NCBI GenBank assembly: GCA_016184345.1
Contig: JACPCV010000004.1
Coordinates: forward strand, 54,453 to 118,452
Direction: 5' to 3'
DNA length: 64,000 bases
DNA from: Candidatus Woesearchaeota archaeon
GTDB taxonomy: Archaea > Nanobdellota > Nanobdellia > Woesearchaeales > UBA10216
Below the pieces are notes generated by a model that had not been told where the DNA came from, searched no databases, and worked only from the letters and a program-made list of their open reading frames with translations. Every line of letters begins with the position of its first letter. The first letter of the stretch is position 1. Shown one piece after another: positions 3,114 through 56,289 of this stretch. Made by a program: the position numbers and the translations under genes.

Positions 3114-3363
3114 TACCTGATAAAATCGCGTACACCTTAAATATAATTAACACAAACTAGACACCAACTAATAATACAACCCCTGTTGTCTTATCCGTCT
3201 TTTTCATGCTTGAACAAGACATAAATTACCATTTCGGGAACGTGCAGCCACCCAGAGCTTACCTTATGGGCTATATCAGAATGGTTCAGTTAAATGCTGA
3301 AGAGATAGACAAGCTGTTGTGGAGTTCCACCCGCCATCCGCCACGAACAATTTATAGAAATCG

Positions 3364-23982: not shown

Positions 23983-25179
23983 CTATTTTGCCGCGGCAGG
24001 TGCTGCTGCGGCTTTGTTCCTTTTGAACAACGAGGAGAACACGCTTGCACATTTGTGGCTGCTTGCCTTCCTGAGGAAGCCGCACTTAAGCTTCTGGCAG
24101 CTATGGCCTTGGGCTATCTCGTTGCCGGCGCATTCCAGCTTTTTGCAGGCATGATTTGCGGCAGCTTCGTCCTCGCCGCAGTTTAGCTTGCTGCAGCTGT
24201 TGTTGAAGATGTACTCGTCTTCCGCGCATTCAAGAGATGCACAGCTGTGCTCAGAAACGTACTCGTTGTATTCACACGACAGCGGCTGGCACTTCCTGCT
24301 GTCACCGCAAACAAAACCAGAGTCGCAGTCCAAGTCAGTGCAGCAGTCATAATCAACGCAGGTGTGGTTTGACTGGTACTGGCACGAGCCGCAGCTTACC
24401 GGAATGCAGAAGCCCCCATCGCAGCGCTCGCTTTGGAGGCACTGGCCGTCACTGCTGCACGAGGGGCGGTCTGTGCACTCAAAGGAATCGTAAAACTTGT
24501 ACTTCGCTGTGTCACAATCATCATACCTTATCATTAGCTTGGAAACGTTAAGAGGCGTCTGCCACTTCAGCGTGTAGGTGTTTGAGCCCACACGCTTAAT
24601 CCTAGTTATGTTTATTGTTTCAAAATCAGGGCTGACGGCATCCGGGGCATGAGTAAGCTCTTTTTTCTTGCCGCCAATGCTTGCAACAGCATCGTACCTC
24701 AGCATGAACGGCTTTTCAAAGCGGAACTCGTTCTTCTTGTCATAACGGAAGCTGTAGGCAGTGTATTTCCCAAAAAAAGTGTCGTTGCGCCTGTAGCAGC
24801 TGTTTATTGTTATGTTGATGAGCTTGCAGCTGAACTTGAAAGGGGGGCAGGTAACGCCGTAGCTGCCCTTGTCAACTTTTATCGTGTAGTAGCCACCCTT
24901 AACATCAACAACAGCCATGTCGTCGGACGTAAACTTAAACATGCCGTTGGACATCTCTCTCCACGTTCCTGAAACAGCAGAAGCCGAGCCGCCGCTCCTC
25001 TTGATTGAAATAGACTTGCCCCTGTCCTCAAGGTTGGAGATGCTGAAAGCGCCGGTATTCTGGCAGTGAGACTCTGCAACCGGCTTTGGCTGTAGCTGGG
25101 CTGAGACAGCAGCAGCAGTAGCAATAAGCAAAGTGCCGACTAAAGCTGCCAGCAAAGCAGTTTCCGCCTCTTTTTTCAT
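23983..25179 (-). CDS. Secreted cysteine-rich protein with C-x3-C repeats, hypothetical
   Basis: 398 aa, N-terminal signal/TM (LLAALVGTLLIATAAAVSAQ). C-terminal half has ~8 repeats of ...SC.KL.C.EDE... Divergent from the next gene. Confidence 0.55.
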   Translation of the reverse strand: MKKEAETALLAALVGTLLIATAAAVSAQLQPKPVAESHCQNTGAFSISNLEDRGKSISIKRSGGSASAVSGTWREMSNGMFKFTSDDMAVVDVKGGYYTIKVDKGSYGVTCPPFKFSCKLINITINSCYRRNDTFFGKYTAYSFRYDKKNEFRFEKPFMLRYDAVASIGGKKKELTHAPDAVSPDFETINITRIKRVGSNTYTLKWQTPLNVSKLMIRYDDCDTAKYKFYDSFECTDRPSCSSDGQCLQSERCDGGFCIPVSCGSCQYQSNHTCVDYDCCTDLDCDSGFVCGDSRKCQPLSCEYNEYVSEHSCASLECAEDEYIFNNSCSKLNCGEDEAAANHACKKLECAGNEIAQGHSCQKLKCGFLRKASSHKCASVFSSLFKRNKAAAAPAAAK

Positions 25180-25244
25180 TAAGACGACTATGCAACTGCC
25201 CCTTTAAAAAAATTTTGCAAAGGAAGGGAGAGCCAACAGAAAGT

Positions 25245-25252
25245 TTTAAATA
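25245..25252 (+). promoter_or_regulatory. TTTAAATA box for the large repeat-protein gene
   Basis: 27-34 nt upstream of the ATG at 25279. Confidence 0.4.
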
Positions 25253-25278
25253 GCGAGCTGGGAGTATGCTGGCTTGGC

Positions 25279-27969
25279 ATGAGAAAAGAGGCAGGAATTT
25301 CTTCAGCATCAGCTTCAACAATAGCCATCTTTAGCGCTTTAATCGCTTCATTACTGCTAGTAATAGCTGTTGCAGCCCAGGAAGAGGAGGAAGAGGTCAT
25401 GGTCGAGGAGGAGCTTGTTCCTGAGGAAGCAGCAGGGGTAACTCCTGACAGCCCAATCTACGTCTTTGACAAGATTGTTGACGACGTGCAGCTTGCTCTC
25501 GCTAAAGGAGAGGACAAGACAAAGAAAGCCCTTGAAATAAAGGAGGAAAGGATTGCAGAAGCAGCCATAATGGTTGACAAGAAAAAGCCAGATGCGGCAA
25601 AAGGCGCGCTTGAGCTCGCAGCAAAGGCAGCAGGGCAGGCGCAGAAGGAGCTTGACCCTGAGTTTGAAAAAGAGACAAACGAAAAAGTAAGGAGGGCGGC
25701 AAAGCTGCTCTCTGGCCTGCAGGAAAAGCTCCCTGACCAGGGCTGGGAGGGCGTAGAGAAAGCGCTTGACGCACAGCTCAGCGAGGAAGAAAAGGTAAGG
25801 GTAGCGCTTCTCGTGTCAAAAAGCAGGCTCACCTACTGCGATGCCATTGCACAGCAGGACTTTGACCTAATGAAGCAGGACGAACTCTGCCAGGTGGAAA
25901 AAGCCCCACAGTGGCTCAGAGAAAGGGTAGAAGGCGAGTTCAAGTCAAGGGAAGACAAAGCCAGGAACCTGATTATAGACACGGTAAGCTCCTGTGTAGT
26001 AGACCCTAAAAAGTGCGACTGCAGCCAGATACCTGTTGGGAAGCACAGCCAGTCATGCGAAGTCAAAAAGGCATTAGCGATAAGGTGCGAGTACGAAAAC
26101 GACGAGTCGGCATGCTCAGAGCTGGCTTCTGAGAAGCTTGAAGACTTCCTGCCCGAGTTCGTTGGCGAGGAGGGGAAGCAGACTGTGCTCTCGCACCTGC
26201 GCGAGAAGGAAGAGCAAATGTTTGAAAAGTTCAAGCCGCCGGAATGCGCAAATGCGCAAACGTTCCAGGAATGCTTCGCAGTCATGAAAGACCTCTACGG
26301 AACACCCATGCAATGCAAAGGCCTAAGCGATGACGAATGCATGGAATTCATTAAGCGAAACCCTCCAACCGAGAAGCCCAACCTGCCGCCGGAATGCAAT
26401 GAGGCAGGCGTCCAAAAGCCAGTTGAGTGCGCAGAGCTCATGTTCAGCAAATATGGAACACCCCCACAATGCGAAGGGCTTGACACAAGGGAATGCATGA
26501 AGCTGATGAGGCAGGAAAGGCCTGATGCGATGCAAAACGCAATGCCAAAGGAGTGCCAGGACGCAGGAGCGAAAGAGCCAAGGCAGTGCTTTGACATAAT
26601 GACTGCAAAATTCGGCTTCCCGCCAGAATGCGAAGGGCTGGATACTGATTCCTGCTTCAAGGAAATGATGAAGCGGGGACCCGGAGAAGGGCCGGAAGGC
26701 GGAACAAGGCAGGAAACTCCGGAGTGCCAGGAGAAGGGAGTAAAAGGCAAGGACTGCTTCCTGCTAATGACTGAGCTCTATGGGGGAATGCCACAGGAAT
26801 GCGAAGGGCTGAGCGCTGACGAATGCTTTGAGAAAGTGACAAAGGAAGGCCCGCCAAAAGGAGCACCTCCGGTAAACTGCGTCGGGCTAAGCCCTGAAGA
26901 GTGCAGGGCAAAGATCCAGGAGCAGCACGGGCTCCCGCCGGAATGCGCGCAGAATCCTGACCAGTGCCAGAACGCGTTTGAAGGCAGGGGAGTGCCGGGA
27001 GGAATACCTGCAGAATGCGCAGGGCTTGAGCCAGAGCAGTGCGAGCTTGTAATGATGCAGAAGTTCGGGCCGCCGGAATGCAAAGAGGCAACAAAGGACG
27101 AGTGCGAGGCAATAATGAAGGAAAAATACGGAGAAGGCGGCTTTGGAGGAGGACCCGGTCCCGGCGGTCCGGGCCAAGGCGGTGAAGGCGGCTTCGGATT
27201 TGGAGGAACAGGCGGAGGAGGCTTTGTAAATGAATGCGAAGGCCTGCCAAGGGAGGAGTGCGAGAACAAGATGTTTGAAAAGTTTGCCCCGCCGGAATGC
27301 AGCGGCTTATCAAGGGAAGAATGCGGAAGGATGACCAGGGGGAGGTTTGAGCGCGAGAGGCAGGAACAAGATAAAAACCGCGGTGAATGCGAAGGCCTAT
27401 CAGAAGAAGAATGCAGAGGCAAGTTCTTTGAAGGCAGGGGAGAGGGAGACGCAAGAGGCGAGGGCGAAAGGCGGGAAGGAGGGGATGCAGGAGCGGCTGG
27501 ACCACAACGCACATTTAGGGAGCCGCTTGGGGAGCCTATAAGGGGAGCACCTTCTGGGTGTGAAGGACTCTCACCAGAAGAATGCGGCTCAAGAATGGAA
27601 CAGGCAGCGAAGGAAAGGTTCATTCCGCAAGGAGAGCCGATAAGGCGAGAACCGCAACAGCAGCCATACCCGGCAAGGGAATATCCTGCAGGCTCATACC
27701 CCGAACGGGGAGGAGAATACCCGAGAGGTTACCAGCAGCCCAGCGGCGGAGAAGGCAGCTACCCAAGCAGTGAAGGTTCTTACCCTGGCAGCGGGAGCGG
27801 CACCAGCGATGGCGGAAGCGAAAGCAGTGGAGGATTTGGAGGAGACTCTGGAAGCCCAGGCAGAAGTGACAGTGGCAGCGGGGGAGGCGGCTCAGGCGGC
27901 GGAGAAGGCACAGCAGCAGCGATAACAGGCCAGATAATAAAAGCAATCAAGTGGGTAGGCGGGAGATAA
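25279..27969 (+). CDS. Large secreted low-complexity protein with >12 tandem Cys-containing repeats (PPEC-EGL-x3-EC-x2-M-x3-G), acidic N-terminus and Gly/Ser-rich C-terminus
   Basis: 896 aa, N-terminal hydrophobic anchor or signal. Repeat unit of about 22-30 aa (e.g. GTPPQCEGLDTRECMKLMRQERP, GFPPECEGLDTDSCFKEMMKRGP). C-terminal G/S/Y-rich tail. Antisense ORFs in this region are compositional artefacts. Confidence 0.7.
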   Translation: MRKEAGISSASASTIAIFSALIASLLLVIAVAAQEEEEEVMVEEELVPEEAAGVTPDSPIYVFDKIVDDVQLALAKGEDKTKKALEIKEERIAEAAIMVDKKKPDAAKGALELAAKAAGQAQKELDPEFEKETNEKVRRAAKLLSGLQEKLPDQGWEGVEKALDAQLSEEEKVRVALLVSKSRLTYCDAIAQQDFDLMKQDELCQVEKAPQWLRERVEGEFKSREDKARNLIIDTVSSCVVDPKKCDCSQIPVGKHSQSCEVKKALAIRCEYENDESACSELASEKLEDFLPEFVGEEGKQTVLSHLREKEEQMFEKFKPPECANAQTFQECFAVMKDLYGTPMQCKGLSDDECMEFIKRNPPTEKPNLPPECNEAGVQKPVECAELMFSKYGTPPQCEGLDTRECMKLMRQERPDAMQNAMPKECQDAGAKEPRQCFDIMTAKFGFPPECEGLDTDSCFKEMMKRGPGEGPEGGTRQETPECQEKGVKGKDCFLLMTELYGGMPQECEGLSADECFEKVTKEGPPKGAPPVNCVGLSPEECRAKIQEQHGLPPECAQNPDQCQNAFEGRGVPGGIPAECAGLEPEQCELVMMQKFGPPECKEATKDECEAIMKEKYGEGGFGGGPGPGGPGQGGEGGFGFGGTGGGGFVNECEGLPREECENKMFEKFAPPECSGLSREECGRMTRGRFERERQEQDKNRGECEGLSEEECRGKFFEGRGEGDARGEGERREGGDAGAAGPQRTFREPLGEPIRGAPSGCEGLSPEECGSRMEQAAKERFIPQGEPIRREPQQQPYPAREYPAGSYPERGGEYPRGYQQPSGGEGSYPSSEGSYPGSGSGTSDGGSESSGGFGGDSGSPGRSDSGSGGGGSGGGEGTAAAITGQIIKAIKWVGGR

Positions 27970-27972
27970 CTT

Positions 27973-28260
27973 TTACTTCTTTGATGCATTTTTGTTGCGG
28001 TAGTAAAGCCACATCGCAGTTGCACCAGTAACAAGGCCAGCCGCAGCACCAGCAACCAAGCCTTCAAGCCCTGCAGTGTAAACAGGATGATTGTCAATGA
28101 ACTGCCTAACGCCTTCCGGCGCAGCAGATTTGACAGTGCCATAAGCAAAGTCAACCGCCTTAAAGAACCAGCCGTGAGGCGGAGGCAGGCCTGTGTAAGC
28201 GGCTGTAGCTAATGCGGCAATGCCGCCCACGATTAAAACAGGCTTTGAAACCTTCATCAT
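27973..28260 (-). CDS. Small membrane protein, hypothetical
   Basis: 95 aa, two hydrophobic segments and a lysine-rich C-terminus. Confidence 0.35.
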   Translation of the reverse strand: MMKVSKPVLIVGGIAALATAAYTGLPPPHGWFFKAVDFAYGTVKSAAPEGVRQFIDNHPVYTAGLEGLVAGAAAGLVTGATAMWLYYRNKNASKK

Positions 28261-28369: not shown

Positions 28370-28996
28370 ATGAAGGCTTTAAAGACGTTATCAATAGGCG
28401 CAGAAGCCGTTATATACGCAGATGAGCGCAGGAAGGCTGTAATTAAGCAGCGGCAGCCAAAGAAATACCGCGTTAAAGAACTGGATGAGAAACTCAGGCT
28501 GCACCGCATGAGAAGGGAGGCAAAGGTGATTGAAGCGCTGCAGAAGCTCGGAATACCTGTCCCTAAGCTGGTTGATGCTGATGAGAAAACAGCAACGATA
28601 ACGATGCAACTCATTGAAGGCAGGAAGGTAAGGGACGTCCTAGGCAAAGGCAATTACCGTGACATTTGCAGCAAGATAGGGAAAGCGATTGGAACAATGC
28701 ACTCCAGCGACATTGTCCACGGCGACTTGACTACGTCAAACATGATTCGCAGCAGCCACGACGGAAAAACATACTTTGTAGACTTCGGGCTGAGCCTTTT
28801 TTCAAACAAGGATGAGGACAAGGCAGTTGACCTGCATCTCTTCAGGCAGGCACTCAGCAGCAGCCATCATGAAATTGCGAATAAGTGCTTTACAGCTGCT
28901 GTGACAGCCTACAAGGGAACAAACAAAAACTGGCAGCCTGTGCTAAGACGTCTGGAAAAGGTTGAAGAACGAGGAAGGAACAAAGGGAAAGGATAG
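28370..28996 (+). CDS. bud32: KEOPS complex kinase/ATPase Bud32
   Basis: 208 aa. RIO-like kinase motifs HGDLTTSNM and DFGLS. Confidence 0.8.
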   Translation: MKALKTLSIGAEAVIYADERRKAVIKQRQPKKYRVKELDEKLRLHRMRREAKVIEALQKLGIPVPKLVDADEKTATITMQLIEGRKVRDVLGKGNYRDICSKIGKAIGTMHSSDIVHGDLTTSNMIRSSHDGKTYFVDFGLSLFSNKDEDKAVDLHLFRQALSSSHHEIANKCFTAAVTAYKGTNKNWQPVLRRLEKVEERGRNKGKG

Positions 28997-29060
28997 AAAG
29001 GCTTAAAATCGAAAGGTATATAAGTAAGATATGCTTTACTTATCCTACAGGTGACGCACT

Positions 29061-29324
29061 ATGCAAGTTGAATTAACAAGGATATCTGAAAAAGGACAGG
29101 TCGTTATTCCTTCTTCTCTAAGGAAAGAGATGGGAATAAAGAAATCAGACCAATTTATGATATTTGGAGAAGGCGGGACAGTAATATTGAAGAAGATAGA
29201 AACGCCGGCAATTAAAAGAACATTTGACGAGATTGCCAAGCCATTACAACAGGCGGCAAAGCAGGCAGGATTAACAAGAGCTGACGTAAACAAAGCCATC
29301 AAAGATGTAAGAAATGTTGCTTAA
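29061..29324 (+). CDS. AbrB/MazE/SpoVT-family antitoxin (VapB-like)
   Basis: 87 aa, swapped-hairpin motif (GQVVIPSSLRKEMGIKKSDQFMIFGEGGTVILKK). Confidence 0.7.
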   Translation: MQVELTRISEKGQVVIPSSLRKEMGIKKSDQFMIFGEGGTVILKKIETPAIKRTFDEIAKPLQQAAKQAGLTRADVNKAIKDVRNVA

Positions 29325-29550
29325 ATTAGTTCTTGATACCAACACAATTGTTTCACTTTCCCATTTGGTTATTGCTCCCAAATTGAACATAAAAGTTTGC
29401 AGAGATGAGAAGGATAATAAATTCCTAGAATGCGCAGAGAACGCAAAAGCTGATTATATTATCAGTGGAGACGATGACTTGCTGTCATTGAAGGAACATA
29501 AAGGAATTCCTATTGTGAGAACTTCCAAAATACTGCATTTACTGAAATAA
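29314..29550 (+). CDS. Short PIN_3-like protein, apparently truncated or degenerate toxin
   Basis: 78 aa. N-terminal LVLDTNTIVS and C-terminal CRDEKDNKFLECAENAKADYIISGDDDLL resemble the two ends of PIN_3 nucleases, but the middle ~40 aa are missing. Overlaps the antitoxin gene by 11 nt. Confidence 0.4.
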   Translation: MLLKLVLDTNTIVSLSHLVIAPKLNIKVCRDEKDNKFLECAENAKADYIISGDDDLLSLKEHKGIPIVRTSKILHLLK

Positions 29551-29798
29551 ATTTCTTTTTCCGCAGAAAAAGGCAATATGTCCGAAGGACTGAGCCCTTT
29601 TCCCCTCGTCACTAAGAAAAAATTTGGGCGAATGAAATGAAGCGAACTGAAGAGAACACAGAAGTATGCCTGAACTAAGCGAAGGTTGGATTTTAGTGCA
29701 ACGATGCCGAAGGGAAAAATCCAAAGTTGAGAAAAAGACTGATACAATCAAAGCCGAAGGCTAATAAAAGCATACATAATAAAGGCTGGGACTACCGC

Positions 29799-30311
29799 TT
29801 AAAGTAGAAACATAACCGCCCAGAATATCACACCAACAATTATCCAAACCACTTCTCCAATTGAAAAATCTGTCTTTTCTGGTGATTTTTGGGTTTTATC
29901 CCAATACCCATTAAAATATTTTTGAATTGCAATTAATGGAAGAAGAGCTAAAACAGTAAATACCAAACTAAAATACCAATATTGATCCGGAAGTTTCCAT
30001 GAAAGTCTATTGTCAATCAGGGTTAAACCAATATACACTGCAGTTAAATCACCTGCAGAAAATTTTGTATTTACTTTCTTCTGGTTTGCTAGTTTGATAA
30101 TTGTTCTAAACTGGTCATAAATCAACCAAATACCATATAAAGGCACAATCAAACCCAGAGTTCTCCATTTTGGGTGAATATCTTTTTTAGCTGTTTCCTT
30201 AATATATTTCCAATTTCTATAAAGCCAATAGATTTCATAAATTCCTAGAGTAACGATACTAAGTATAATCAACTTCTTAATTGGAAACTTATTTGAATAT
30301 TTTTCCTTCAT
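29799..30311 (-). CDS. Membrane protein (4-5 TM), hypothetical, in AT-rich DNA
   Basis: 170 aa, Trp/Tyr-rich TM segments. Confidence 0.35.
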   Translation of the reverse strand: MKEKYSNKFPIKKLIILSIVTLGIYEIYWLYRNWKYIKETAKKDIHPKWRTLGLIVPLYGIWLIYDQFRTIIKLANQKKVNTKFSAGDLTAVYIGLTLIDNRLSWKLPDQYWYFSLVFTVLALLPLIAIQKYFNGYWDKTQKSPEKTDFSIGEVVWIIVGVIFWAVMFLL

Positions 30312-30392
30312 ATTAATATTAACAAATTTGGCTATTATTTAAAACTATCTAAAGCTGGTCCAGCCTCTTAAAGTTTAAGGTCTTTTTCTGAA

Positions 30393-30833
30393 TTGCATTT
30401 AATCGGTGTTATACTCCCAGCAGCCGAATTTATGAAGAAGTCAATAAATGAGGCAAGGGTTGAACACTACAGCAGCAGCGAGGAGCGGAGAAAATCTAAG
30501 AGGCAGAATTTTATTAAAATACAGAGAACTTTGACAGATAGAATAATATTTAAAGACCAAAGCGTTTTTCTTTTTAGTATGCGAAGTATTCAATGGTTCC
30601 TCATTGGTATTTTTTTAATAGTTATGGGTATCTGGTTTATTAAAATAGATATGACATGGGCTCTTGGTTGCAATATTTTAGATGACTCTTCTACGTTAAA
30701 TAAAGCTGATATAGTTGCATGTGTAAATGGTGAGATTTTAGACCCGTTTATATGGCTGTTATTTCCTTTAGGAGTAGTTTTTAATATCTGTGGGTGGATA
30801 GAAGCTATAGCAGAAAAAAGAGAAAAAAGATAA
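30393..30833 (+). CDS. Membrane protein, hypothetical, in AT-rich DNA
   Basis: 146 aa with two clear TM helices. Confidence 0.3.
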   Translation: MHLIGVILPAAEFMKKSINEARVEHYSSSEERRKSKRQNFIKIQRTLTDRIIFKDQSVFLFSMRSIQWFLIGIFLIVMGIWFIKIDMTWALGCNILDDSSTLNKADIVACVNGEILDPFIWLLFPLGVVFNICGWIEAIAEKREKR

Positions 30834-31030
30834 TGTCTGAATTAGCTCTTCGTTGCAAGACTTGTAAAAAAATATTCTTTAAATTTGATATTCCATTTAG
30901 TTTATCCAAACTTTACTCTAAGAAAAAAGAAAGAAGGGTTCATTTAGGCCATCGTGTAGATGTTATTGAAGTAAAATAAAATCCGCCCCCTTTTTCGTTT
31001 ACAGGCACATTGAAAGCATTAAAGTTTTCT

Positions 31031-46903: not shown

Positions 46904-46941
46904 AAGAGCATTAAGGGGTGGTTTATAAAGATTACTAACGC

Positions 46942-46975
46942 TTGAGCTGTAAGGTTAGCGGGTGGTAAGCAAGGT
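46942..46975 (+). repeat. Island boundary repeat A (ttgagctgtaaggttagcgggtggtaagcaaggt), outer left
   Basis: About 31/34 identical to repeat B. Its reverse complement matches repeat D (52753-52785). Confidence 0.7.
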
Positions 46976-47240
46976 ATTGTTCAGGGTTTGTGTTAAGTAA
47001 CAGATGTTAAGGAAACGTCTGAAAAACATTTATAAAGGTCTATTATTGAGCTTTTTCTATGGGTAGGGCACCAAGCCATAAAACAGAGAGGTATGGTGCA
47101 AAGGTAAGCCATAAACAGGTTGTTTGCTCAAAACAGTTCCCAGAATGCCCTGAAACTCCGAATTACAACGATTGCCACACTTGTCCCTTGTGGGGAACGG
47201 GCATTAGTTCAACATATAAGCAAAAATGGTTAAACGAAAA

Positions 47241-47274
47241 TTGAGCTGTAAGGTTAGCGTTTGGTAAGCAAAAG
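47241..47274 (+). repeat. Island boundary repeat B (ttgagctgtaaggttagcgtttggtaagcaaaag), inner left
   Basis: Its reverse complement matches repeat C (52332-52362), about 21/27. Confidence 0.7.
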
Positions 47275-47306
47275 CTGTTTATAAAACTAGCTTTGATGAG
47301 GTAAAA

Positions 47307-47897
47307 ATGCTTATTCCGCCTTATCCAATAATCCCGATGCAATTTCAATATTTGGAAAAGATTGATAAAATTGCTCAGGATTTGCAAGAGAAGGCAAAAC
47401 AGCACGGTCACAAAGATAAATTTATTGATGGGAACGAGTTAAGAGCCAATAAAATCGGTAAATTAGGCGAACTCGGTTTTAGGGACTTTCTTGATTTATA
47501 TTCAATCAAGTATGAATATGATGAAAGTTTGGATGACCTTGATGAAAAGGATTTTTTCTTATGGGAAGCAGAGAAAAAAGCAAAGTTAGATTTAAAGACT
47601 CAACGTATAAGGGAAAATCAACGACCTATACCTATTTGGAATTGTGAGGTTAATGATAAGCAAAAAGATAAAAAAATGGATTACTATGCTTTTACAAAGT
47701 ACAATGAGGATATTCAGGAACTTCATTTTGTTGGATTTATTGGTTATGAACGTTTCTGGAAAATAGCTCAAAAAAGGAAAGTTGGAGAAACGTTTTTTGG
47801 TGGAGAACCAGTAAAAGGCGACAATTGGTGTGTTCAAATATCGGATTTAGAAACGCCTGAAGAATTTTTAAAACAATTTAAAAAGAAACAACAATAA
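47307..47897 (+). CDS. Hypothetical protein, convergent with the methyltransferase; possible PD-(D/E)xK nuclease
   Basis: 196 aa, AT-rich. Segment ...GFRDFLDLY...DFFLWEAEKK offers a possible D...E-x-K arrangement, weakly supported. Abuts the methyltransferase stop with no gap. Confidence 0.3.
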   Translation: MLIPPYPIIPMQFQYLEKIDKIAQDLQEKAKQHGHKDKFIDGNELRANKIGKLGELGFRDFLDLYSIKYEYDESLDDLDEKDFFLWEAEKKAKLDLKTQRIRENQRPIPIWNCEVNDKQKDKKMDYYAFTKYNEDIQELHFVGFIGYERFWKIAQKRKVGETFFGGEPVKGDNWCVQISDLETPEEFLKQFKKKQQ

Positions 47898-49448
47898 TTA
47901 AAAGTGTCCTATTTTCTTTTGACTTTCCCTCTTTGTTGATAAATCTTTAATTCCTTGCGCTTCTTTGAATGGCATATAGCTACTCGGTAATCTTAATCTC
48001 GTATCATCTAAAAATTCTTTAATGGTAATTATTTGTATTTTTGGATATTCTTCTTCCATCATCCCAATTTTAAAGAAGCCTTCCTTATTCGCTTCTTCTT
48101 TCATTGGCTTTGTTGGGTCTTCCAAAGTTATGAGAACCCCTCCAATAGCTTTTTCCCTTTTCATATCACCATTTAAAGCAGAAATATCCTTCCTTTGAAC
48201 CCCGCCGCTCTTAACCTGAATAAGAATTTTCTCAAAGTCCTTTTCAGAAGTTCTTATGATAACATACCCGTCTATTCCTTCATCGGCACTTTTCTTTTTT
48301 GAAGGGATTGCATTAACTAAACTTAAAGCCCAATATTGAAATTCAAACCTGTTTTTTAAAGCGAGTTCTTTTGCACCCCCAACGTCTTTCGGAATACCAT
48401 CAAGACTAATCTTTATGCCTTTTTCAAATAAGTGAAATTGTTTTTCTAACCTGCTTTTAATAAGAGTAATGGCTAATGTTGTAATGTCAATTCCGACCCA
48501 TTTTCTATCTAAATGTTCAGCAACAGAAACCGTAGTTCCACAACCGCAAAAAGGGTCAAGAATAACATCGCCCTTATTTGAACTTACACGGATAATTCGT
48601 TCCAAAAGTGCCTCTGGTTTTTGAGTGGGATAACCTAAAACTTCTTGGTCTCTTTTCAAAGTCATCATATCAATACCGTGCAAAGGCTTTACATCACCCC
48701 ACCAATCCCTCAAAGGATAGCCTTTTGCCTCATCTAAATATTGCCTATACCTCCCCCCACTTCCATCAGGTTGTAATTGAAAAAGCCTTCCTTTTTCGTC
48801 TATGTGCGTAAAATACATTTTTATATAATTATCATCATAAGGGGTAAATTGTATGTTAAAAGTGTATTCGCTACTCTTCGTATAAAAGAAAATTATGTCG
48901 TGCTTTCTTGAATATTTCTTAGCTTTCGGGCTTTCCCTTCCACTATAACACCATGCGATTTCATTCCTAAAATTGTTTTTATCAAATATGCTGTCTAAAA
49001 TTATTTTTAGATAATGGCTTGCGGTTGGGTCGCAATGTAAGTAAATAGACCCTGTTTTTTTCAAAACCCTATGCAGTTCTATTAATCTTATTGTCATCAT
49101 TACTAAATAAGCCATCATATCGTTTTCGCCTAAAATCTTCTTAAATCCTTGAATTAAATCAGAAATCTCAGTGTTTATTTTTGTTTTAGAAGGTCTTGTG
49201 CCTATCAGTTCTTCAAAAGTTCTTTCTGCCTCTTCCGTCCAATGCCATGTATCATCAAAAGCTTTCAGTTGTGCACCATTTTTAACAAGCCCTTCTTTAA
49301 ACAGAATATTGTATGCTCTATTGGAATTAAATGGCGGGTCAAGATAAATCAGGTCAATGCATTCATCTGAAAATCTATCTCTTAATACTTCAAGATTATC
49401 GCCAAAAAATAAGGTTCTATTTTCCATTAAGCTTATTTTTTGCACCAT
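47898..49448 (-). CDS. Beta-class DNA amino-methyltransferase fused to a C-terminal Mrr-like PD-(D/E)xK nuclease domain
   Basis: 516 aa. DPPFNSNRAYN (motif IV) then DPFCGCGTT (motif I). C-terminal ~180 aa carry ADEGIDGYVI and ILIQVKSG, resembling the Mrr catalytic GIDG / Q-x-K motifs. Confidence 0.7.
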   Translation of the reverse strand: MVQKISLMENRTLFFGDNLEVLRDRFSDECIDLIYLDPPFNSNRAYNILFKEGLVKNGAQLKAFDDTWHWTEEAERTFEELIGTRPSKTKINTEISDLIQGFKKILGENDMMAYLVMMTIRLIELHRVLKKTGSIYLHCDPTASHYLKIILDSIFDKNNFRNEIAWCYSGRESPKAKKYSRKHDIIFFYTKSSEYTFNIQFTPYDDNYIKMYFTHIDEKGRLFQLQPDGSGGRYRQYLDEAKGYPLRDWWGDVKPLHGIDMMTLKRDQEVLGYPTQKPEALLERIIRVSSNKGDVILDPFCGCGTTVSVAEHLDRKWVGIDITTLAITLIKSRLEKQFHLFEKGIKISLDGIPKDVGGAKELALKNRFEFQYWALSLVNAIPSKKKSADEGIDGYVIIRTSEKDFEKILIQVKSGGVQRKDISALNGDMKREKAIGGVLITLEDPTKPMKEEANKEGFFKIGMMEEEYPKIQIITIKEFLDDTRLRLPSSYMPFKEAQGIKDLSTKRESQKKIGHF

Positions 49449-49468
49449 CTTTAAAAACTTTCTTTTCG

Positions 49469-49663
49469 CTACTTTGTTTCTATTAAATCTACTCTTGTTT
49501 TATCGTTTTTGCTTATGACTATTTTTCCTTTTTTTATCTCGGCTTCTAAGTCTTGTCCTTCTTTCCAACCTATTTTATCAATAAGAAAATTAGGGATTAC
49601 TATCCAATGTTTTTGATATGCTTTTCCCTTGTATTCTCGGCTTTTTTGCTTTAATAGTCGCAT
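49469..49663 (-). CDS. AbrB/SpoVT-like small DNA-binding protein
   Basis: 64 aa, HWIVIPNFLIDKIGWKEGQDLEAEIKKGKIVISK. Divergent from the transposase gene across a motif-rich 117-bp spacer. Confidence 0.4.
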   Translation of the reverse strand: MRLLKQKSREYKGKAYQKHWIVIPNFLIDKIGWKEGQDLEAEIKKGKIVISKNDKTRVDLIETK

Positions 49664-49667
49664 AAGA

Positions 49668-49775
49668 AGTCTTAGATACCTACCCCTTTATAAGCATTTC
49701 GGTATCTAAACATATAGTTCCGATTAACTCTCTTTAGGTATCGAAATGTTTATATACTTGCTTAGATACCTAATA
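49668..49775. promoter_or_regulatory. Four copies of an AGATACC/GGTATCT motif in the divergent intergenic spacer
   Basis: cttagatacct at 49671-49681 and 49761-49771 (direct). Inverted ggtatct at 49701-49707 and ggtatcg near 49737-49743. Confidence 0.45.
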
Positions 49776-49779
49776 CGCT

Positions 49780-50661
49780 ATGGAAATGCAAACAAAATGC
49801 GTCTTTTGCAAAGCCACCAACTATATCAAGTGGGGTACTCGCAAAACAGAGAACAGGGGTAGTATTCAGAGGTATAAATGCCTGTCTTGTAAGAAGCGAT
49901 TTACTAATGATGATGGTTTTTACAGGATGCGAAATAGCGAAGAGAAGATTACAGCAGCTATTGACCTTTACTTTTCTAACTTGTCCAGTAGGAAGGTTAG
50001 GAACCACTTTAGAAGGCATTGGAACCATAATGCCAGTCATATGAGCATACTTGATTGGTGCCGAAGATACACCCTTAAAATCCAAAAATACGTGGCTACA
50101 ATGCAGCCACAGCTAAGTGGGCAGTTCTATATGGACGAAACCGAAATAGACAGAGGCAGGGGAAATGATGTTTTTTGGTGTAACGTGGACTGGGGAACAC
50201 GATTCATTAACTCAACAATGTATAGTCCTCACAATCAAACTGTAGAGGATGCTGCTACTTTCCTTAAAGCTACTGTTGCCAAAGGACTGCCAAAATACAT
50301 TCAGACAGATGCGGGTGTTTTTTACCCACAGGCATTTCAAAAGACCTTCTACTCAAGTAAAGCACAAGGTTTGACAGTAGAACACCGCATCCAGAACTAC
50401 CACAAAACAGGCAAGCACAACGTAAGGATTGAAACCGTCTTTATGAAGGTCAAAGACCGAGTGGACGATTTTAGAGGGCTTAAAGCCCTATGGAGTGCTC
50501 CGATACTAATGCAGGGCATAATATTACAGCATAACTTCATAGAAGCACACACAACAACAGGAAAAGTGCCTTCAGAATTAGCAGGTCTTAAACTGGAGGC
50601 AGGACAAAACAGATGGCTTGGAATGATAAAGTTGGCTTCGTCGGGAACAAAAGGTTTATAA
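49780..50661 (+). mobile_element. DDE transposase with N-terminal zinc ribbon, IS6-like
   Basis: 293 aa. CVFCKATN...YKCLSCKK zinc finger, then FYMDETEIDRGRG...NVDWGTRFI, resembling the DETY(V/I)K and D..R core of IS6-family enzymes. No matching terminal inverted repeats found. Confidence 0.5.
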
Positions 50662-50705
50662 ATAACGTTATATTAACGTTAAATAAACGTTATGAGGACG
50701 TTAAG

Positions 50706-50882
50706 ATGTATGTTCCAAAAGGTAAGCGGAAATTTTTTATAACTGTAAGAGAAGTCAGAGCAGATAACGTTTTAGGGGATTCAGAGTCGTTTTCGGTTTA
50801 TGATTCAGAAGTAAGAATGACCAGAAGAGAGCTTGTAGATTTTTTGACTCAAAAGATTAACGAGACGGATAAAGATGTTTGA
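50706..50882 (+). CDS. Small hypothetical protein, first gene of the unknown island operon
   Basis: The internal ATG (MYVPKGKRKFFITVREV...) has a GAGGA RBS 8 nt upstream. The ORF-track start at 50613 extends into the transposase gene. Confidence 0.25.
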   Translation: MYVPKGKRKFFITVREVRADNVLGDSESFSVYDSEVRMTRRELVDFLTQKINETDKDV

Positions 50883-51519
50883 ACTAATAAAATTCGTAGG
50901 CGTAATTTGGGATTACTACGATAACACTAACACACTTATAAGAATTTTGAAAACAATTTGGCGATACGTGAATTTCTGGAAATGGTTTATTCAAAATCCA
51001 AAAATTAGAATGAAATATGGAAGATTAATTAATGCAAAAGGAAACTACAATGATAGCTTATTAAAAATAAAATCAAAACTAAAATCTGGCGATTATGAAT
51101 TTAGTGACGGCGTAATAGAGCATGATAATAAATTACTTTTTGAATTTAAGGATACCAGATTAGGTTATCAAATAAAATTTTATCCATTAAAAGAAAATTC
51201 TCATCATATCAAAATAAGCACAATATTCTACACACTCTTTCCTTTTCGTGAATTAACTACCATTAATGATATTAAGAAGGATTTTTATCGTCTTTGTGAA
51301 TTAATAAGAACATTAATTAAGATGCAAGGAAACGAAAACGAAACTATATTTTTAGAAGTTGGAGTAAAAAATAAAAATTCCATCAGGTCAAGTTTTGATT
51401 ATAAAGATGTTCACGTAACATTCTTAGATGAAAAAATCCAGATTGATAATACGTATGGTTCAGAATTTGACCAGATAATTCTTCTTATTTTAACAAGATG
51501 GCTGATAGACCGTAACTAA
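50875..51519 (+). CDS. Hypothetical 214-aa protein (AT-rich, island)
   Basis: Overlaps the upstream small ORF by 8 nt, so operon-like. No recognisable motif. Confidence 0.4.
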   Translation: MFELIKFVGVIWDYYDNTNTLIRILKTIWRYVNFWKWFIQNPKIRMKYGRLINAKGNYNDSLLKIKSKLKSGDYEFSDGVIEHDNKLLFEFKDTRLGYQIKFYPLKENSHHIKISTIFYTLFPFRELTTINDIKKDFYRLCELIRTLIKMQGNENETIFLEVGVKNKNSIRSSFDYKDVHVTFLDEKIQIDNTYGSEFDQIILLILTRWLIDRN

Positions 51520-52286
51520 TGAGAATAATCTTCGTAACCTTGAGATACTTCGGGTAATTCAGTTTGAACTTCCGATTTTTGAACATAGTCAGAATAAGGC
51601 AGGAAAATTGTTGTAAGTTCTTTAAGCAACAAGATTTCTTCATCTGAGTTCTTCAGAATAATGTGTTTTAACAAAGAACCAGATTTAAAGATGGCAACTT
51701 TAATCCTTTTTCCTATTTTTGATAAGACCTCAACACCTATCCCCTCTCTTTCTGAAGGGGCTGTTATAAACTTGAGGTCTTCATCAATTTCTTCCCCATA
51801 TTGACCTTGATATTTTATGTTACCTTCTTCCCTGACACCGTTAAACCAGATATTATCAAATTCGCCCTTTCTTTTAGCTTCAAGGACTAATTGCGGTTTA
51901 AAACTAACTGGGCGAATCTTTTTACCTGATTCATATAAAATCTTACTTAAAATCTCAATACCGAATAAACTAGCTTTTTCTTTTGATTCAAATAAAATAA
52001 CATCAATATCAGGAAATATTGTAAAATTTAATTCGTCCTTGAGAAAAATGGGCTTTTCTTTTAAAATTGGCATATAATTATCCTCAATCTCATAATCATA
52101 GTCCATATACCGCCTTTTAACAAGAATTGTTCCACTAATAAACTTTCTTTTTTCTGAAATAAGAGGTTTGCCAGCAATTCTCACTTCTTTAATCCTATCA
52201 GAATCAATTGATTTATAGTTAAAACCGATTAATTTCTTCTCGGCTTCTTTCTTAGTTATTTTAAGACATTTTGTAATAAACGCCAT
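51516..52286 (-). CDS. Hypothetical 256-aa protein (AT-rich, island)
   Basis: Convergent with the 50875 gene, 3' ends overlap by 4 nt. No recognisable motif. Confidence 0.4.
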   Translation of the reverse strand: MAFITKCLKITKKEAEKKLIGFNYKSIDSDRIKEVRIAGKPLISEKRKFISGTILVKRRYMDYDYEIEDNYMPILKEKPIFLKDELNFTIFPDIDVILFESKEKASLFGIEILSKILYESGKKIRPVSFKPQLVLEAKRKGEFDNIWFNGVREEGNIKYQGQYGEEIDEDLKFITAPSEREGIGVEVLSKIGKRIKVAIFKSGSLLKHIILKNSDEEILLLKELTTIFLPYSDYVQKSEVQTELPEVSQGYEDYSH

Positions 52287-52331
52287 ATTCCATAACTTAA
52301 AAATATGGGTATATAAACCTTTATCACTTGT

Positions 52332-52362
52332 CAGTTTACCAAACGTTTACTTTATAGCCAAC
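52332..52362 (-). repeat. Island boundary repeat C (inverted copy of B), inner right
   Basis: Reverse complement gttggctataaagtaaacgtttggtaaactg vs B gctgtaaggttagcgtttggtaagca. Confidence 0.65.
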
Positions 52363-52364
52363 AA

Positions 52365-52697
52365 TCATTTGCCTTTTAGTAGTTTATTTACTGTTGGTAG
52401 GCTTTTTTTAACTTCATCCAACAACTTAAGTTGAACCTCAAGTGGCAGGACTGGAGCGATTATGGTTTCAATAACTACCTTAAGCCGCTTAACATAGAAC
52501 TCTACACCCTCCTTTTTCCCAGCAGCAACTAACGCTTCAGACAGGTCATAAACTGCTTTTTGAATCCGCTGAAACTCTGGCTTAAGACTTTGCTCTACTA
52601 CTCCCCGAGCAACTTCCTCTTCAGGCACGCCCAGCATAGCAGCCAGCTCCTTACGCTTCTGCTTATAAAAATCCGTTTGCTCCTTATCCCACTCCAT
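52365..52697 (-). CDS. Hypothetical 110-aa helical protein between inner and outer right repeats
   Basis: Normal GC. Lies between repeats C and D. Confidence 0.4.
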   Translation of the reverse strand: MEWDKEQTDFYKQKRKELAAMLGVPEEEVARGVVEQSLKPEFQRIQKAVYDLSEALVAAGKKEGVEFYVKRLKVVIETIIAPVLPLEVQLKLLDEVKKSLPTVNKLLKGK

Positions 52698-52752
52698 AAA
52701 GAGTCAAAAGAACAAGCTAAAGATAAAAAGCTTCCCATCCCTAACCAAGAAG

Positions 52753-52785
52753 CTACCACCCGTTTACTTTACAGCCCACTAACGC
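52753..52785 (-). repeat. Island boundary repeat D (inverted copy of A), outer right
   Basis: Reverse complement gcgttagtgggctgtaaagtaaacgggtggtag vs A gagctgtaaggttagcgggtggtaag. Both share the gggtgg variant. Confidence 0.65.
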
Positions 52786-52842
52786 TTGGCATTTGTTCCT
52801 TATTGGTATCCCTTCTATGCTAGCGTCAGATAAACTTCAGAA

Positions 52843-53586: not shown

Positions 53587-56289
53587 TCACGCCTTAGCTT
53601 CCTGCCTTTTTGAAACCAGCTTCGGGAGGCCAGTTCCAACTGGCACGGGCTGGTTCAGCATTACATTCTCAACAACTGAAGTCAGGTTGTCAACCTCTCC
53701 GTAAAGGCTTGCATTTATTATGTGCTTTATGGGAGTCTCAAAACTGGCACGGGCAAGGACGCTTGCCTTGTCCCTTACAACACCGTACCTTGTTATGCCC
53801 TTTACCTTGCCGTCAGCGCACATGACATCGGCAACAAGCATCAAATGACGGATGTCAACGTTAAGGCCCTGGGTCTCAATGACCTTGTAAACCTCATCAA
53901 TCACTGCCTGCCTTGCAGCCTCTATGCCAAGGGTTTCCTCAATCTCAAAAACATCATTAGTTGTTGTCCTTGTCTCGTCAACGAACGGCAGCTGGAGCAC
54001 CTTCTTCAGGTTTGAGCCGAACGTGAGTATGACATACTCATTGTTCTTCCTGACAGGAAGCACCTGAGACACCCCCCTGACTCCCCTGACAAAGGTCTCC
54101 TTGGCCTTCTCCTTGAGCTTGAATATGTCGCTCACCCCGCCTTCCTTTGCCTTTACCTTGAGGATAAGGGTATCGCTTTTTATGTCAACGTGAACGCCCT
54201 TGACGCCAACCTTGAGCGCCTTGGCAAGCGTGACCTCGTTAATGCCAAGCTCCTTCATCTTGCCTGTATCAAGCTGCACCTCAATCCTGTTGTCAGCAAC
54301 ATTGATTGAGAACTCCAGGGCTATGTCCTTGAGCTTGGTCTCCTTAACCATCAGCGCAACCTTCTTGATGTCCTGGCCCTCGGAGTAGGGCTTCTTGAGG
54401 TAAATCTCCATCATCGGGGTAGTCAGGTTTTTCCTTCCATCCAGGATTTCAATAATCCTCGGCAGTCCCATGGTGACGTTCATCTCTGAAACGCCTGCGA
54501 AGTGGAACGTGTCCAGAGTGTTGTGGGTTACGATGCCGTCAAAGGTTGTGAAGGTCTCTGTATCTTCCACAGAGAAGTCATAGACGTGTACCGCAGTTGG
54601 TTTCACATAATCCAGCGCCACTATTTCGTCCCACACAACATCAGCATCCAACATCCTTTTAATTACGCCCAGTTCTTCGCTGATGTCAGCACTCTTTTTT
54701 GCTGCAAGCGCCGAGAAATTTTCGGCATACCTTGCAAGCGCTGCCCTTCCCACCTTCTGCTTCCTTGTCAGCTTGGTTACCAGCCTGCTTGGAAGCCCAA
54801 GCTTCTGGCCAAGCGCTGCAAACAGCTGCCCGTAGCCGGGAATCATGTCAATTACGTCATAACTTTTTCCCCTCACCTCAGCCGCTTCCAGCTTTTCAGC
54901 CAGCTTAACCAGCGCGGCCCTCTTTTCAGGAATCATTGAGCCAATCTTTTCCAAAAACTTTTTGCCGTACCTGTAGGAAATGGAAAGCCAGCACTGGCCC
55001 TTCTTATCCGAATTCTTTACAGAAAATATTCCCAGCCGCGTGAGCAGCAAAGAAATTCCGTCAATAAGCTCCTCAGAATTGGAGCTGGCCCTTATCACAT
55101 TTCTAATGACGCTTACATTTCCGTCGCCGTCAAAATACGCCTGCAGCAGGCTGGCGATGAAATCCTCATTGGCATCGTAAGCGAATGCGGGAATTTTCTT
55201 GTTGTCTGATTTCTTGCCGCAGACCAGCCTAAGAAGGTCTGCAAGCACTGTTGAGTGCATCCATAAGGTGGTGCTTGGCCCGAATTCGCCCATTTCGCGC
55301 TTGACGTTATAGCCGACTTTGTACTTGCCTGCGAACTGCACAGCCATTGCCAAATACTCTTCTGACACGTTGGAAATGCCTACAGAGTTCTCGACGTGAA
55401 CGCCTTCCGCGAGGTAAGCGCCAACAAGCCAGCCAAACGAGCTGTCAAGGGGCATGACTTCATGTATCTGAGCTCTGCCGTGGTTCTGGTAAGGGTAAAC
55501 AAAGCCTTCCTGGACTAAAACCTGGTTAGCTGAATTGGCGTAATTATTTATCTGCTCGTACTTCAAGGGAATTGTGGCTGCGCTGTGCAGCCTGCTGTTG
55601 CTCTCAATGGCTTTTTTAAGCTCGCTGCCATAGACATACCTTTCTTTTGGCAGGAACTCTTCAATTGCAAGCAAGTCTTTCGATCCGGCAATGGCAAGCT
55701 TCCTAAGCGCTGGAATCCTGGCGCCAACTTTTAAGCTGGAGCCTGCAACAGGCTTAACCTTGTTGTCGTCTCTTATGACAAAGGAGTGGTATGGCGTGGC
55801 TACAATCTGCCTTCCGGAAGCGGTTGTTATCCTCAACAGCTTGGAAGGAGCCGTGTGCCTGCTGACCGCAGTAATCCTGCGCCACACTATTTTCTCATCC
55901 TTGCCTAAGCTGGGCACAAACACATTGCCAGCAAGCTGGCAGACCGATGTTTGCTCGTGATTAGCCAGCTCCTTGAAGCCGTAAAACGCCATGGCGGCAT
56001 CAACGAACCTTCCAATCTCCACCGCTTTAACGCCCTGCTCGACCTTAATAATGACCTTTTCCGCATAGTCGACTGACATCTGCGTTCCTGGCTCGCCTAT
56101 GGACTCCGCAGCAACCAGGCCGACAGACTCGCCTGCCTCAACCTTCATTCCAGAGTACTCGTCAGCAATGCTCTTGGCAATCTCCTTTGCCCTTGAGTCT
56201 GAAACCTTTTCAGGCATTGCCGCAACTACCTCTGCATAGAGCCCTGGCGGAAGGGTGCCCTGAAGTTCCTTCAAAATGCTGGTTGCCAT
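53587..56289 (-). CDS. rpoA2: DNA-directed RNA polymerase subunit A'' interrupted by an intein
   Basis: 900 aa, against ~380 aa for a typical A''. Exteins: N-terminal 71 aa ending GEPGTQM; C-terminal 310 aa starting TLDTFHFAGVSEMN. Confidence 0.9.
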   Translation of the reverse strand: MATSILKELQGTLPPGLYAEVVAAMPEKVSDSRAKEIAKSIADEYSGMKVEAGESVGLVAAESIGEPGTQMSVDYAEKVIIKVEQGVKAVEIGRFVDAAMAFYGFKELANHEQTSVCQLAGNVFVPSLGKDEKIVWRRITAVSRHTAPSKLLRITTASGRQIVATPYHSFVIRDDNKVKPVAGSSLKVGARIPALRKLAIAGSKDLLAIEEFLPKERYVYGSELKKAIESNSRLHSAATIPLKYEQINNYANSANQVLVQEGFVYPYQNHGRAQIHEVMPLDSSFGWLVGAYLAEGVHVENSVGISNVSEEYLAMAVQFAGKYKVGYNVKREMGEFGPSTTLWMHSTVLADLLRLVCGKKSDNKKIPAFAYDANEDFIASLLQAYFDGDGNVSVIRNVIRASSNSEELIDGISLLLTRLGIFSVKNSDKKGQCWLSISYRYGKKFLEKIGSMIPEKRAALVKLAEKLEAAEVRGKSYDVIDMIPGYGQLFAALGQKLGLPSRLVTKLTRKQKVGRAALARYAENFSALAAKKSADISEELGVIKRMLDADVVWDEIVALDYVKPTAVHVYDFSVEDTETFTTFDGIVTHNTLDTFHFAGVSEMNVTMGLPRIIEILDGRKNLTTPMMEIYLKKPYSEGQDIKKVALMVKETKLKDIALEFSINVADNRIEVQLDTGKMKELGINEVTLAKALKVGVKGVHVDIKSDTLILKVKAKEGGVSDIFKLKEKAKETFVRGVRGVSQVLPVRKNNEYVILTFGSNLKKVLQLPFVDETRTTTNDVFEIEETLGIEAARQAVIDEVYKVIETQGLNVDIRHLMLVADVMCADGKVKGITRYGVVRDKASVLARASFETPIKHIINASLYGEVDNLTSVVENVMLNQPVPVGTGLPKLVSKRQEAKA
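54520..56076 (-). other. Intein (519 aa) with LAGLIDADG homing-endonuclease domain inside rpoA''
   Basis: Starts with Ser (SVDYAEKVIIKV, block A) and has block B GRQIVATPYHSF. Two LAGLIDADG motifs (GWLVGAYLAEG, LLQAYFDGDG). Ends VTHN followed by Thr +1. Confidence 0.8.

Follow-up and report, generated by a model that had tools for sequence, protein, structure and literature searches.

BtgZI (GCGATG 10/14) is a Type IIC/IIS enzyme that carries an alpha-class methyltransferase at its N-terminus and a PD-QxK nuclease at its C-terminus, with Gln standing where the nuclease site would have its second acidic residue (PMC4081073). Here we describe a gene of similar plan, in which a beta-class DNA methyltransferase is fused to a C-terminal Mrr-type domain of the PD-(D/E)xK fold. 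It lies in a 64,000-nucleotide (nt) stretch of a Candidatus Woesearchaeota archaeon of the DPANN group (GenBank assembly GCA_016184345.1, contig JACPCV010000004.1, forward-strand positions 54,453 to 118,452), which as a whole we call the window. Compared by published description and not by sequence, BtgZI and the fusion share a single chain with the methyltransferase first and a QxK nuclease last. They differ in that the methyltransferase is alpha-class in BtgZI and beta-class, Mod-like, in the fusion, and in that activity is demonstrated for the former and predicted for the latter. The difference from BtgZI is the methyltransferase; the domain order itself is already precedented.

Other described systems resemble the fusion in part. 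In MspJI the active site is D334/Q355/K357, within a 'DX20QAK' motif (PMC3479186). The fusion has D-X17-QVK, matches the Mrr_cat family and, as a structural model, is closest to MspJI. In the MspJI/Mrr family (Type IV/IIM), however, the nuclease is joined to an N-terminal winged-helix or SRA reader and cuts modified DNA, whereas the partner domain of the fusion is a methyltransferase predicted to write the mark; moreover, the helix-1 Glu is Gln in the fusion. MmeI-type enzymes (Type IIG/IIL) are likewise encoded by solitary genes that combine restriction and modification domains, with a rapidly diversifying recognition module on a conserved scaffold and no need of a separate partner (PMC4081073). 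In them the nuclease comes first, followed by a gamma-class methyltransferase and, at the C-terminus, the recognition domain; in the fusion this order is reversed, the methyltransferase is beta-class and the recognition region is internal. Type III Mod proteins such as EcoP15I Mod share with it the beta-class motif order and a central variable recognition region (PDB 4zcf_A, E = 7e-9; 6k0w_B, E = 1e-10). Unlike them, the fusion has no adjacent Res helicase-nuclease, the nuclease-like domain being fused directly and without a motor; indeed, the open reading frame (ORF) list and Pfam revealed no ResIII or helicase ORF within the mobile element that carries the gene. Finally, the NACHT-associated inactive restriction endonuclease 1 family (NA-iREase1) differs in that the fusion has no NACHT domain and retains D393, Q411 and K413, with the D and K essentially invariant. 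Set against Type IIC/IIG enzymes in general, the fusion has both domains in one polypeptide and no conserved separate restriction gene; its domain order and methyltransferase class do not match, BtgZI being the sole exception with such an order.

Our preferred reading, held tentatively and with confidence short of even, is that the fusion is a single-chain restriction-modification enzyme of the BtgZI/Type IIC kind. This reading fits best because D393 is invariant and K413 nearly so, the recognition region is diversifying, the gene is both solitary and mobile, and BtgZI provides a precedent.

The methyltransferase and its recognition region

The fusion is encoded by one of two convergent ORFs that abut with a gap of 0 nt, at 47898-49448 on the minus strand (516 amino acids, aa) and 47307-47897 on the plus strand (196 aa). 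An earlier, sequence-only reading had placed both ORFs there in this arrangement, and all the motifs that it cited are present. The true start of the fusion is probably M8, at 49427, because homologs begin at MENRTLFFGDNL in the alignment and because an NCBI protein from a Candidatus Woesearchaeota assembly (P0001, labelled 'restriction endonuclease') is 509 aa long and 100% identical to it. Homolog alignments and the NCBI model P0121 (186 aa) place the start of the smaller ORF probably at M11, at 47337, giving 186 aa. The two genes and the domains of the fusion are:

47898..49427, minus strand: gene of the methyltransferase-Mrr fusion, 509 aa when read from M8 (open frame as far as 49448)
48462..49358, minus strand: beta-class N6_N4 DNA methyltransferase domain, aa 31-329 (Pfam)
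48654..48866, minus strand: hypervariable target-recognition region, aa ~195-265 (identity and entropy)
48006..48353, minus strand: Mrr-type PD-(D/E)xK-fold domain, aa 366-481, with E369 and Q371 in helix 1, D389, D393 and Q411-V-K413
47337..47897, plus strand: small PD-(D/E)xK-type nuclease candidate, 186 aa from M11 (ORF from 47307), with GKLGE55, D82 and D95-L-K97-T

The methyltransferase domain spans almost the whole of the Pfam N6_N4_Mtase model (positions 1-218 of 221; E = 3.8e-45, 155 bits against a cut-off of 26.7). Motif IV, DPPF at aa 37-40 (DPPFN at aa 37-41), precedes motif I, DPFCGCGTT at aa 298-306, with the variable region between them. The enzyme is thus beta-class, in agreement with the sequence-only reading, which had recognized an amino-methyltransferase from the same two motifs. 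Its sequence matches in the PDB are CcrM, M.MboIIA, DpnA, M.RsrI and Type III Mod proteins, including EcoP15I Mod, and PADLOC assigns it to MTase_II (E = 2e-61), with weaker Type III Mod matches (MTase_III, E = 1e-38). The Asp of DPPF, together with the similarity to CcrM, MboIIA, RsrI and Mod, suggests that the product would be N6-methyladenine (m6A).

The region between the catalytic motifs behaves very differently from the scaffold around it. Mean identity to 119 listed non-identical homologs is 23% in the recognition region, against 65% in the N-terminal core, 77% in the block of motifs X-I-III and 53% in the C-terminal domain. Column entropy is 2.26 there, compared with 0.6-0.9 in the catalytic core, and the homolog alignment contains large indels. 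MmeI-type enzymes have been described as following such a pattern, in which the specificity module diversifies and the catalytic scaffold stays fixed (PMC4081073). A hypervariable recognition region combined with an invariant D393 and a near-invariant K413 fits a single-chain restriction-modification enzyme.

The C-terminal Mrr-type domain

Two Pfam families match the C-terminal domain above their cut-offs. NA-iREase1 scores highest (aa 380-481, E = 4.1e-13, 49.7 bits against 27), followed by Mrr_cat (aa 384-455, E = 3.6e-10, 40.4 bits against 21). The motifs GIDGYVI (aa 391-397) and IQVKSG (aa 410-415) supply the spacing D393-X17-Q411-V-K413. An AlphaFold model of aa 340-516, built on a 30-sequence alignment, reached a predicted local distance difference test (pLDDT) score of 83. 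Its top Foldseek match in the PDB is the catalytic domain of MspJI (4f0p_C, E = 1.4e-4, template modeling (TM) score 0.51), and the next matches, EcoO109I, EndoMS, Can2, EcoT38I and an Rpb5 domain, all have the restriction-endonuclease fold. A profile of this domain alone gave no meaningful match against PDB sequences. The model thus predicts a restriction-endonuclease fold for the domain. The sequence-only reading had called this C-terminus Mrr-like, had suggested a domain search for N6_N4_Mtase and Mrr_cat, and had named a non-nuclease fold without the catalytic residues as the outcome that would speak against it. Both families were found above their Pfam cut-offs, the predicted fold is that of restriction endonucleases, and D393-X17-QVK is retained.

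We followed the catalytic residues in a cellular set of 120 sequences (the window protein and the 119 listed non-identical homologs) and a viral set of 76 (the window protein and 75 distinct homologs):

D389: 120/120 in the cellular set, 76/76 in the viral set
D393: 120/120 in the cellular set, 76/76 in the viral set
Position 411: Q 117, S 2 and gap 1 in the cellular set; Q 41, S 34 and E 1 in the viral set
K413: 119/120 in the cellular set, with 1 gapped; 76/76 in the viral set
Position 371 (helix 1): E 113 and Q 7 in the cellular set; Q 60 and E 16 in the viral set

When the 196 sequences are pooled, every one has D389 and D393, and 195 have K413, the remaining one being gapped there; at position 411, 158 have Q, 36 have S and 1 has E. 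Q472 is nearly invariant as well. In helix 1 the family consensus is FEFEYW and the window protein has FEFQYW, so that E369 is kept and E371 has become Gln. By these alignments the nuclease core is strongly conserved, but two canonical metal-site positions, 371 and 411, are relaxed. SxK variants such as Cfr10I are active PD-(D/E)xK enzymes. Because the helix-1 Glu is Gln here and Q411 is Ser in 45% of viral homologs, DNA cleavage by the fusion must be called putative. Of the single-chain modification-plus-restriction enzyme that had been proposed for this gene, the fused architecture holds and makes the idea plausible. The restriction half is more guarded, given that Gln replaces a residue that is Glu in 113/120 homologs and that the best Pfam match is to a family named inactive.

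A family of stand-alone, mobile genes

The fusion is one of a large family, whose proteins stand alone and are horizontally mobile. The 119 listed homologs are ∼50-67% identical to it and ∼500 aa long, and they come mostly from the Candidate Phyla Radiation (CPR)/Patescibacteria and from DPANN archaea. All have the same three Pfam domains except P0029 (381 aa) and P0120, both without Mrr-type Pfam matches. IMG/VR adds 250 viral relatives, and all 80 of the 80 viral loci that were retrieved encode near-full-length homologs that include the C-terminal domain. The placing of the methyltransferase first had been thought unusual. That view was overstated, since the order is common to 117/119 listed homologs and 80/80 retrieved viral loci and has a published precedent in BtgZI.

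No conserved partner gene accompanies the family. Around 74 viral homologs the immediate neighbors are of many kinds, integrases, recombinases, SNase-type nucleases and other methyltransferases among them; of 139 neighbors, at most 3 share any one Pfam or PHROG family. The five cellular homolog contexts all differ, and homologs occur alone among housekeeping genes. A hidden Markov model of the small-nuclease family found 0 members in 88 retrieved loci that encode methyltransferase homologs. Even P0030 and P0003, which have the recognition-region type of the window protein, are both solitary. Because the neighbors vary, the small nuclease is absent from the 88 loci and the homologs of like recognition region are solitary, the fusion is a stand-alone gene, either an orphan methyltransferase or a self-contained restriction-modification enzyme. 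JGI annotation labels homologs plainly as adenine-specific methyltransferases.

The convergent small nuclease candidate

The smaller ORF gave nothing significant against Pfam, NCBIfam, PADLOC, PHROGs or PDB sequences, and a match to ToxT (E = 0.004) was judged spurious. Its E55...D82...D95-x-K97 nevertheless reads as the canonical E...D...(D/E)xK signature, and a profile search recovered 447 cluster representatives of 150-210 aa that share a conserved G-x-x-G-E, an invariant D82 and (D/E)-x-K-T at 95-98, with K97 and T98 at least 90% conserved. An AlphaFold model (pLDDT 80.5) has weak matches in the PDB, mostly to PD-(D/E)xK nucleases (SPARDA, DpnI, EcoRV, NhoI, HincII and Hjc). Against viral structures in BFVD there are 31 matches at E ≤ 1e-3 (best 3e-9, TM 0.63-0.76), to small uncharacterised phage proteins, two of them named 'Restriction endonuclease'. 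The suggestion that the abutting ORF is a PD-(D/E)xK nuclease candidate is thereby borne out by its signature and by both sets of structural matches.

It has only two non-identical close homologs, at the following loci:

L001, 2644-7375
L004, 6001-11311

One homolog, on a Nanoarchaeia contig, lies directly downstream of a 1,109-aa Type IIG-like enzyme that has a PLD-SNF2 helicase upstream of it, and has a PDDEXK_1 protein on its other side. The other, from Methanofastidiosum, faces in convergent orientation a Type III Res/Mod operon, which is itself preceded by a UvrD-PDDEXK helicase-nuclease. These defense genes hint at an accessory role next to restriction-modification systems. Remoter family members occur in phage-like or unrelated contexts. 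A locus search with a narrow alignment of the family yielded nothing beyond the Nanoarchaeia locus just described, and none from viruses; a wider alignment was too divergent. By its motifs and contexts, the protein is a nuclease candidate of a phage-associated family, found near restriction-modification genes in its three closest contexts and apparently not an obligate partner.

The element that carries the two genes

Both genes lie within a low-GC island with the structure of a transposon:

46945..52777, no strand: whole low-GC mobile element, 5,833 base pairs (bp), GC 0.34 inside against 0.50-0.52 in the host
46934..46944, plus strand: left 11-bp direct repeat ACTAACGCTTG (target-site duplication), with exactly two occurrences in the window
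46946..46967, plus strand: outer left terminal inverted-repeat motif GCTGTAAGGTTAGCGGGTGGTA (22-nt motif scan)
47245..47266, plus strand: inner left repeat copy, after which come a TATA-like box and the gene of the small nuclease
49780..50661, plus strand: DDE transposase-like gene (IS6/IS240-like) with an N-terminal zinc ribbon (Pfam, NCBIfam)
52337..52358, minus strand: inner right repeat copy, leading inward to a TATA-like box and then a 256-aa ORF
52754..52775, minus strand: outer right terminal inverted-repeat motif (22-nt motif scan)
52778..52788, plus strand: right 11-bp direct repeat ACTAACGCTTG, immediately outside the outer repeat pair

The 22-nt motif has exactly 4 matches in the window, where 0.01 would be expected, and these form two nested inverted pairs. 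The ends of the element are imperfect terminal inverted repeats of ∼24 bp, the internal copies lie 299 nt and 417 nt inside their respective ends, and each of the four copies leads inward to a TATA-like box and an inward-facing gene. The whole is inserted in the 47-nt spacer between a NusA-like KH gene and rpS12. In a close relative (L107, NusA 87% identical), S12 comes 47 nt after NusA, the TATA region of S12 is the same and the island is absent. Thus, given the nested inverted repeats, the 11-bp duplication and the empty site in the relative, the methyltransferase/nuclease unit is cargo of a transposon-like element with terminal inverted repeats and a target-site duplication. That the four repeats are mere operators was considered and set aside: the distance to the TATA-like box varies between 12 and 63 nt, the 11-bp duplication borders the outer pair, and the relative has an empty site. 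The repeats fit better as transposon ends.

The unit was rightly said to adjoin a transposase. The DDE transposase-like gene matches Pfam DDE_Tnp_IS240 slightly above the cut-off (E = 4e-6) and NCBIfam transpos_IS6 below it (E = 1.2e-18, 67.6 bits against 125). Five other ORFs of the element have no significant family match. Two ORFs lie between outer and inner repeats, a 61-aa ORF with a CX6CX8CX2C pattern on the left (47059-47244, plus strand; no Pfam match) and one for a 110-aa helical protein on the right (52365-52697, minus strand; no significant family match). The former is a possible zinc ribbon, and both proteins might serve the element that encodes them as accessory factors in DNA binding or transposition. 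Scans of public collections for the 22-nt terminal motif gave only single matches, at the level of chance (∼4 expected in a collection of that size on a rough estimate), and so identified no sister copy of the element.

Upstream of the methyltransferase the element carries a further small gene:

49469..49663, minus strand: AbrB/SpoVT (MazE_antitoxin-like) small DNA-binding protein, 64 aa (Pfam and NCBIfam)

The gene is on the strand of the methyltransferase gene, 41 nt upstream of where the latter starts. Its product matches Pfam MazE_antitoxin slightly under the cut-off (E = 3.7e-5, 24.0 bits against 24.7) and the NCBIfam AbrB domain at E = 5e-3. It is a possible regulator, and it is not conserved beside fusion homologs in the cellular and viral neighborhoods that were checked. 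A 14-nt inverted repeat, CAAAAAATAAGGTT / AAGCTTATTTTTTG, with a 12-nt spacer (49403-49442), spans the probable start codon M8 and could be an operator or a translational hairpin. A sigma-70 promoter/terminator scan, uninformative for an archaeon, placed no terminator between the two convergent genes.

Other features of the window

A second low-GC island (1737-4239, GC 0.33-0.37) carries a restriction-modification-like cassette:

1737-2558, plus strand: 273-aa N6_N4 methyltransferase, overlapping the convergent 186-aa ORF
2553-3113, minus strand: unannotated 186-aa ORF
3364-4239, minus strand: Dam-like D12-class methyltransferase

The 186-aa ORF at 2553-3113 was considered as a paralog of the small nuclease and rejected, as the two have no similarity. 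A third low-GC stretch, 29000-31000 (0.31-0.37), adjoins a RIO/protein-kinase-like ORF (28370-28996, plus strand). It holds a DUF4234-like ORF slightly under the Pfam cut-off (29799-30311, minus strand) and a 146-aa ORF without a Pfam match, and it may be another inserted island. Composition is strongly skewed in the 25000-28000 region, unlike the rest of the window: GC reaches 0.57, AT skew reaches +0.36 and GC skew is positive. No Rfam family reaches its gathering score there. Within the RNA polymerase subunit A'' gene (53587-56289, minus strand, 900 aa) lies an intein (Pfam Intein_splicing, E = 1e-13) that bears a LAGLIDADG homing-endonuclease domain (LAGLIDADG_3, E = 5e-15). The ortholog of this gene in the close relative that has the empty site is 378 aa long and intein-free.

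Discussion

If the fusion is a single-chain restriction-modification enzyme, its parts would work together as follows. The hypervariable region, which lies between motifs IV-VIII and X-I, would select a short DNA site. Using S-adenosylmethionine, the methyltransferase would mark an adenine at that site on resident DNA. The D393...Q411-x-K413 domain, tethered to the same recognition module, would cut unmodified incoming DNA near such sites, probably once two bound molecules unite their single active sites, as in Type IIC/IIG/IIL enzymes and BtgZI. The nuclease activity and its coupling to the recognition module of the methyltransferase are what we infer in this scheme. The convergent 186-aa gene would be a separate phage-type PD-(D/E)xK nuclease riding on the same element, and not an obligate restriction partner. 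Lying as its kind does beside three kinds of restriction-modification system, the small protein could be an accessory or counter-defense nuclease.

Several considerations weigh against this scheme. A Mod-like methyltransferase usually marks one strand only, and a motor-less single-chain system would therefore need a two-site rule. A separate nuclease gene abuts the methyltransferase in what is the classic convergent Type II layout. The family is plentiful on viral contigs, where methyltransferases are usually orphan protective enzymes. Within the nuclease domain, Gln occupies the helix-1 position in the window protein and in 60/76 sequences of the viral alignment, Ser replaces Q411 in 34/76 of them, and the strongest Pfam match is to a family named inactive. 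Our literature search found no paper characterizing the family and no biochemical data for any member.

Several of these observations would also fit an orphan methyltransferase, a possibility that we regard as real though rather doubtful. The Mrr-type domain would then be non-cleaving and serve non-specific DNA binding, processivity or oligomerization; the methyltransferase would protect the DNA of the element from host restriction or act epigenetically; and the small nuclease would be unrelated cargo. The naming of NA-iREase1 as an 'inactive REase' agrees with this, as does the loss of acidic or polar metal ligands at 371 and 411 in many homologs, including Q371 here. So do the 250 IMG/VR relatives, often near integrases or recombinases like other phage accessory genes, the JGI label that mentions adenine methylation only, and the solitary position of homologs among housekeeping genes. 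However, D389 and D393 are invariant, K413 is kept in 195/196 sequences and Q472 in nearly all, at 40-65% identity, and such retention is hard to square with a purely structural or DNA-binding role. In addition, active PD-(D/E)xK enzymes with QxK are documented (MspJI, PMC3479186), and the hypervariable recognition region suggests arms-race selection.

The two abutting genes could instead form a conventional Type II system, with the 186-aa protein as cognate endonuclease, the 509-aa protein as methyltransferase with an accessory C-terminal domain, and the 64-aa AbrB-like protein as controller. We consider this unlikely. In its favor, the genes are convergent with a 0-nt gap, a small DNA-binding gene stands immediately upstream of the methyltransferase, and in the second island of the window, too, a methyltransferase converges with an ORF of 186 aa. 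E55...D82...D95-x-K97 is present in the small protein, whose predicted fold is restriction-endonuclease-like, and both of its non-identical close homologs adjoin restriction-modification systems. Yet a conserved pair should be inherited together, and that test failed, since the small-nuclease family occurs in 0/88 loci of methyltransferase homologs and P0030 and P0003, which share the recognition region, are solitary; the idea that the two genes are a conserved restriction-modification pair has accordingly to be given up. The close homologs of the small protein adjoin a Type IIG enzyme in one case and a full Type III Res/Mod system in the other, each with its own nuclease and a different methyltransferase, and its remoter relatives are in phage-like or unrelated contexts. 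Finally, the 447 cluster representatives of its family agree in size and motifs, and such breadth is more usual in a general phage nuclease than in a restriction enzyme with sequence specificity.

The single-chain reading may extend beyond this locus. The family, whose members would number from hundreds to thousands across CPR bacteria, DPANN archaea and the viruses of both, is perhaps an uncharacterised subclass of single-chain restriction-modification enzymes, although we hold this wider proposal more loosely than the reading of the gene itself. Each member would join a Mod-like beta-class m6A methyltransferase to a C-terminal Mrr-type D-(Q/S)xK nuclease through one shared hypervariable recognition region, amounting to a motor-less 'Type III-lite' or a beta-class Type IIC enzyme. 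If true, such a compact single-chain design would suit tiny genomes and viral accessory-gene slots.

The value of this particular locus lies in a cleanly delimited transposon insertion in a core transcription/translation operon, with an empty site in a relative. Whether or not it cleaves DNA, the fusion of the window is an ordinary member of a known, biochemically uncharacterised family. If the C-terminal domain does not cleave, the family would be one more instance in which methyltransferases reuse a restriction-endonuclease fold as a module for DNA binding. If it does, this abundant family would offer restriction-modification in a compact and programmable form, its recognition region varying on a scaffold that stays fixed, and would be a source of new specificities for enzyme discovery. 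It would also help to explain how the ultra-small genomes of CPR bacteria and DPANN archaea, and their viruses, can afford defense.

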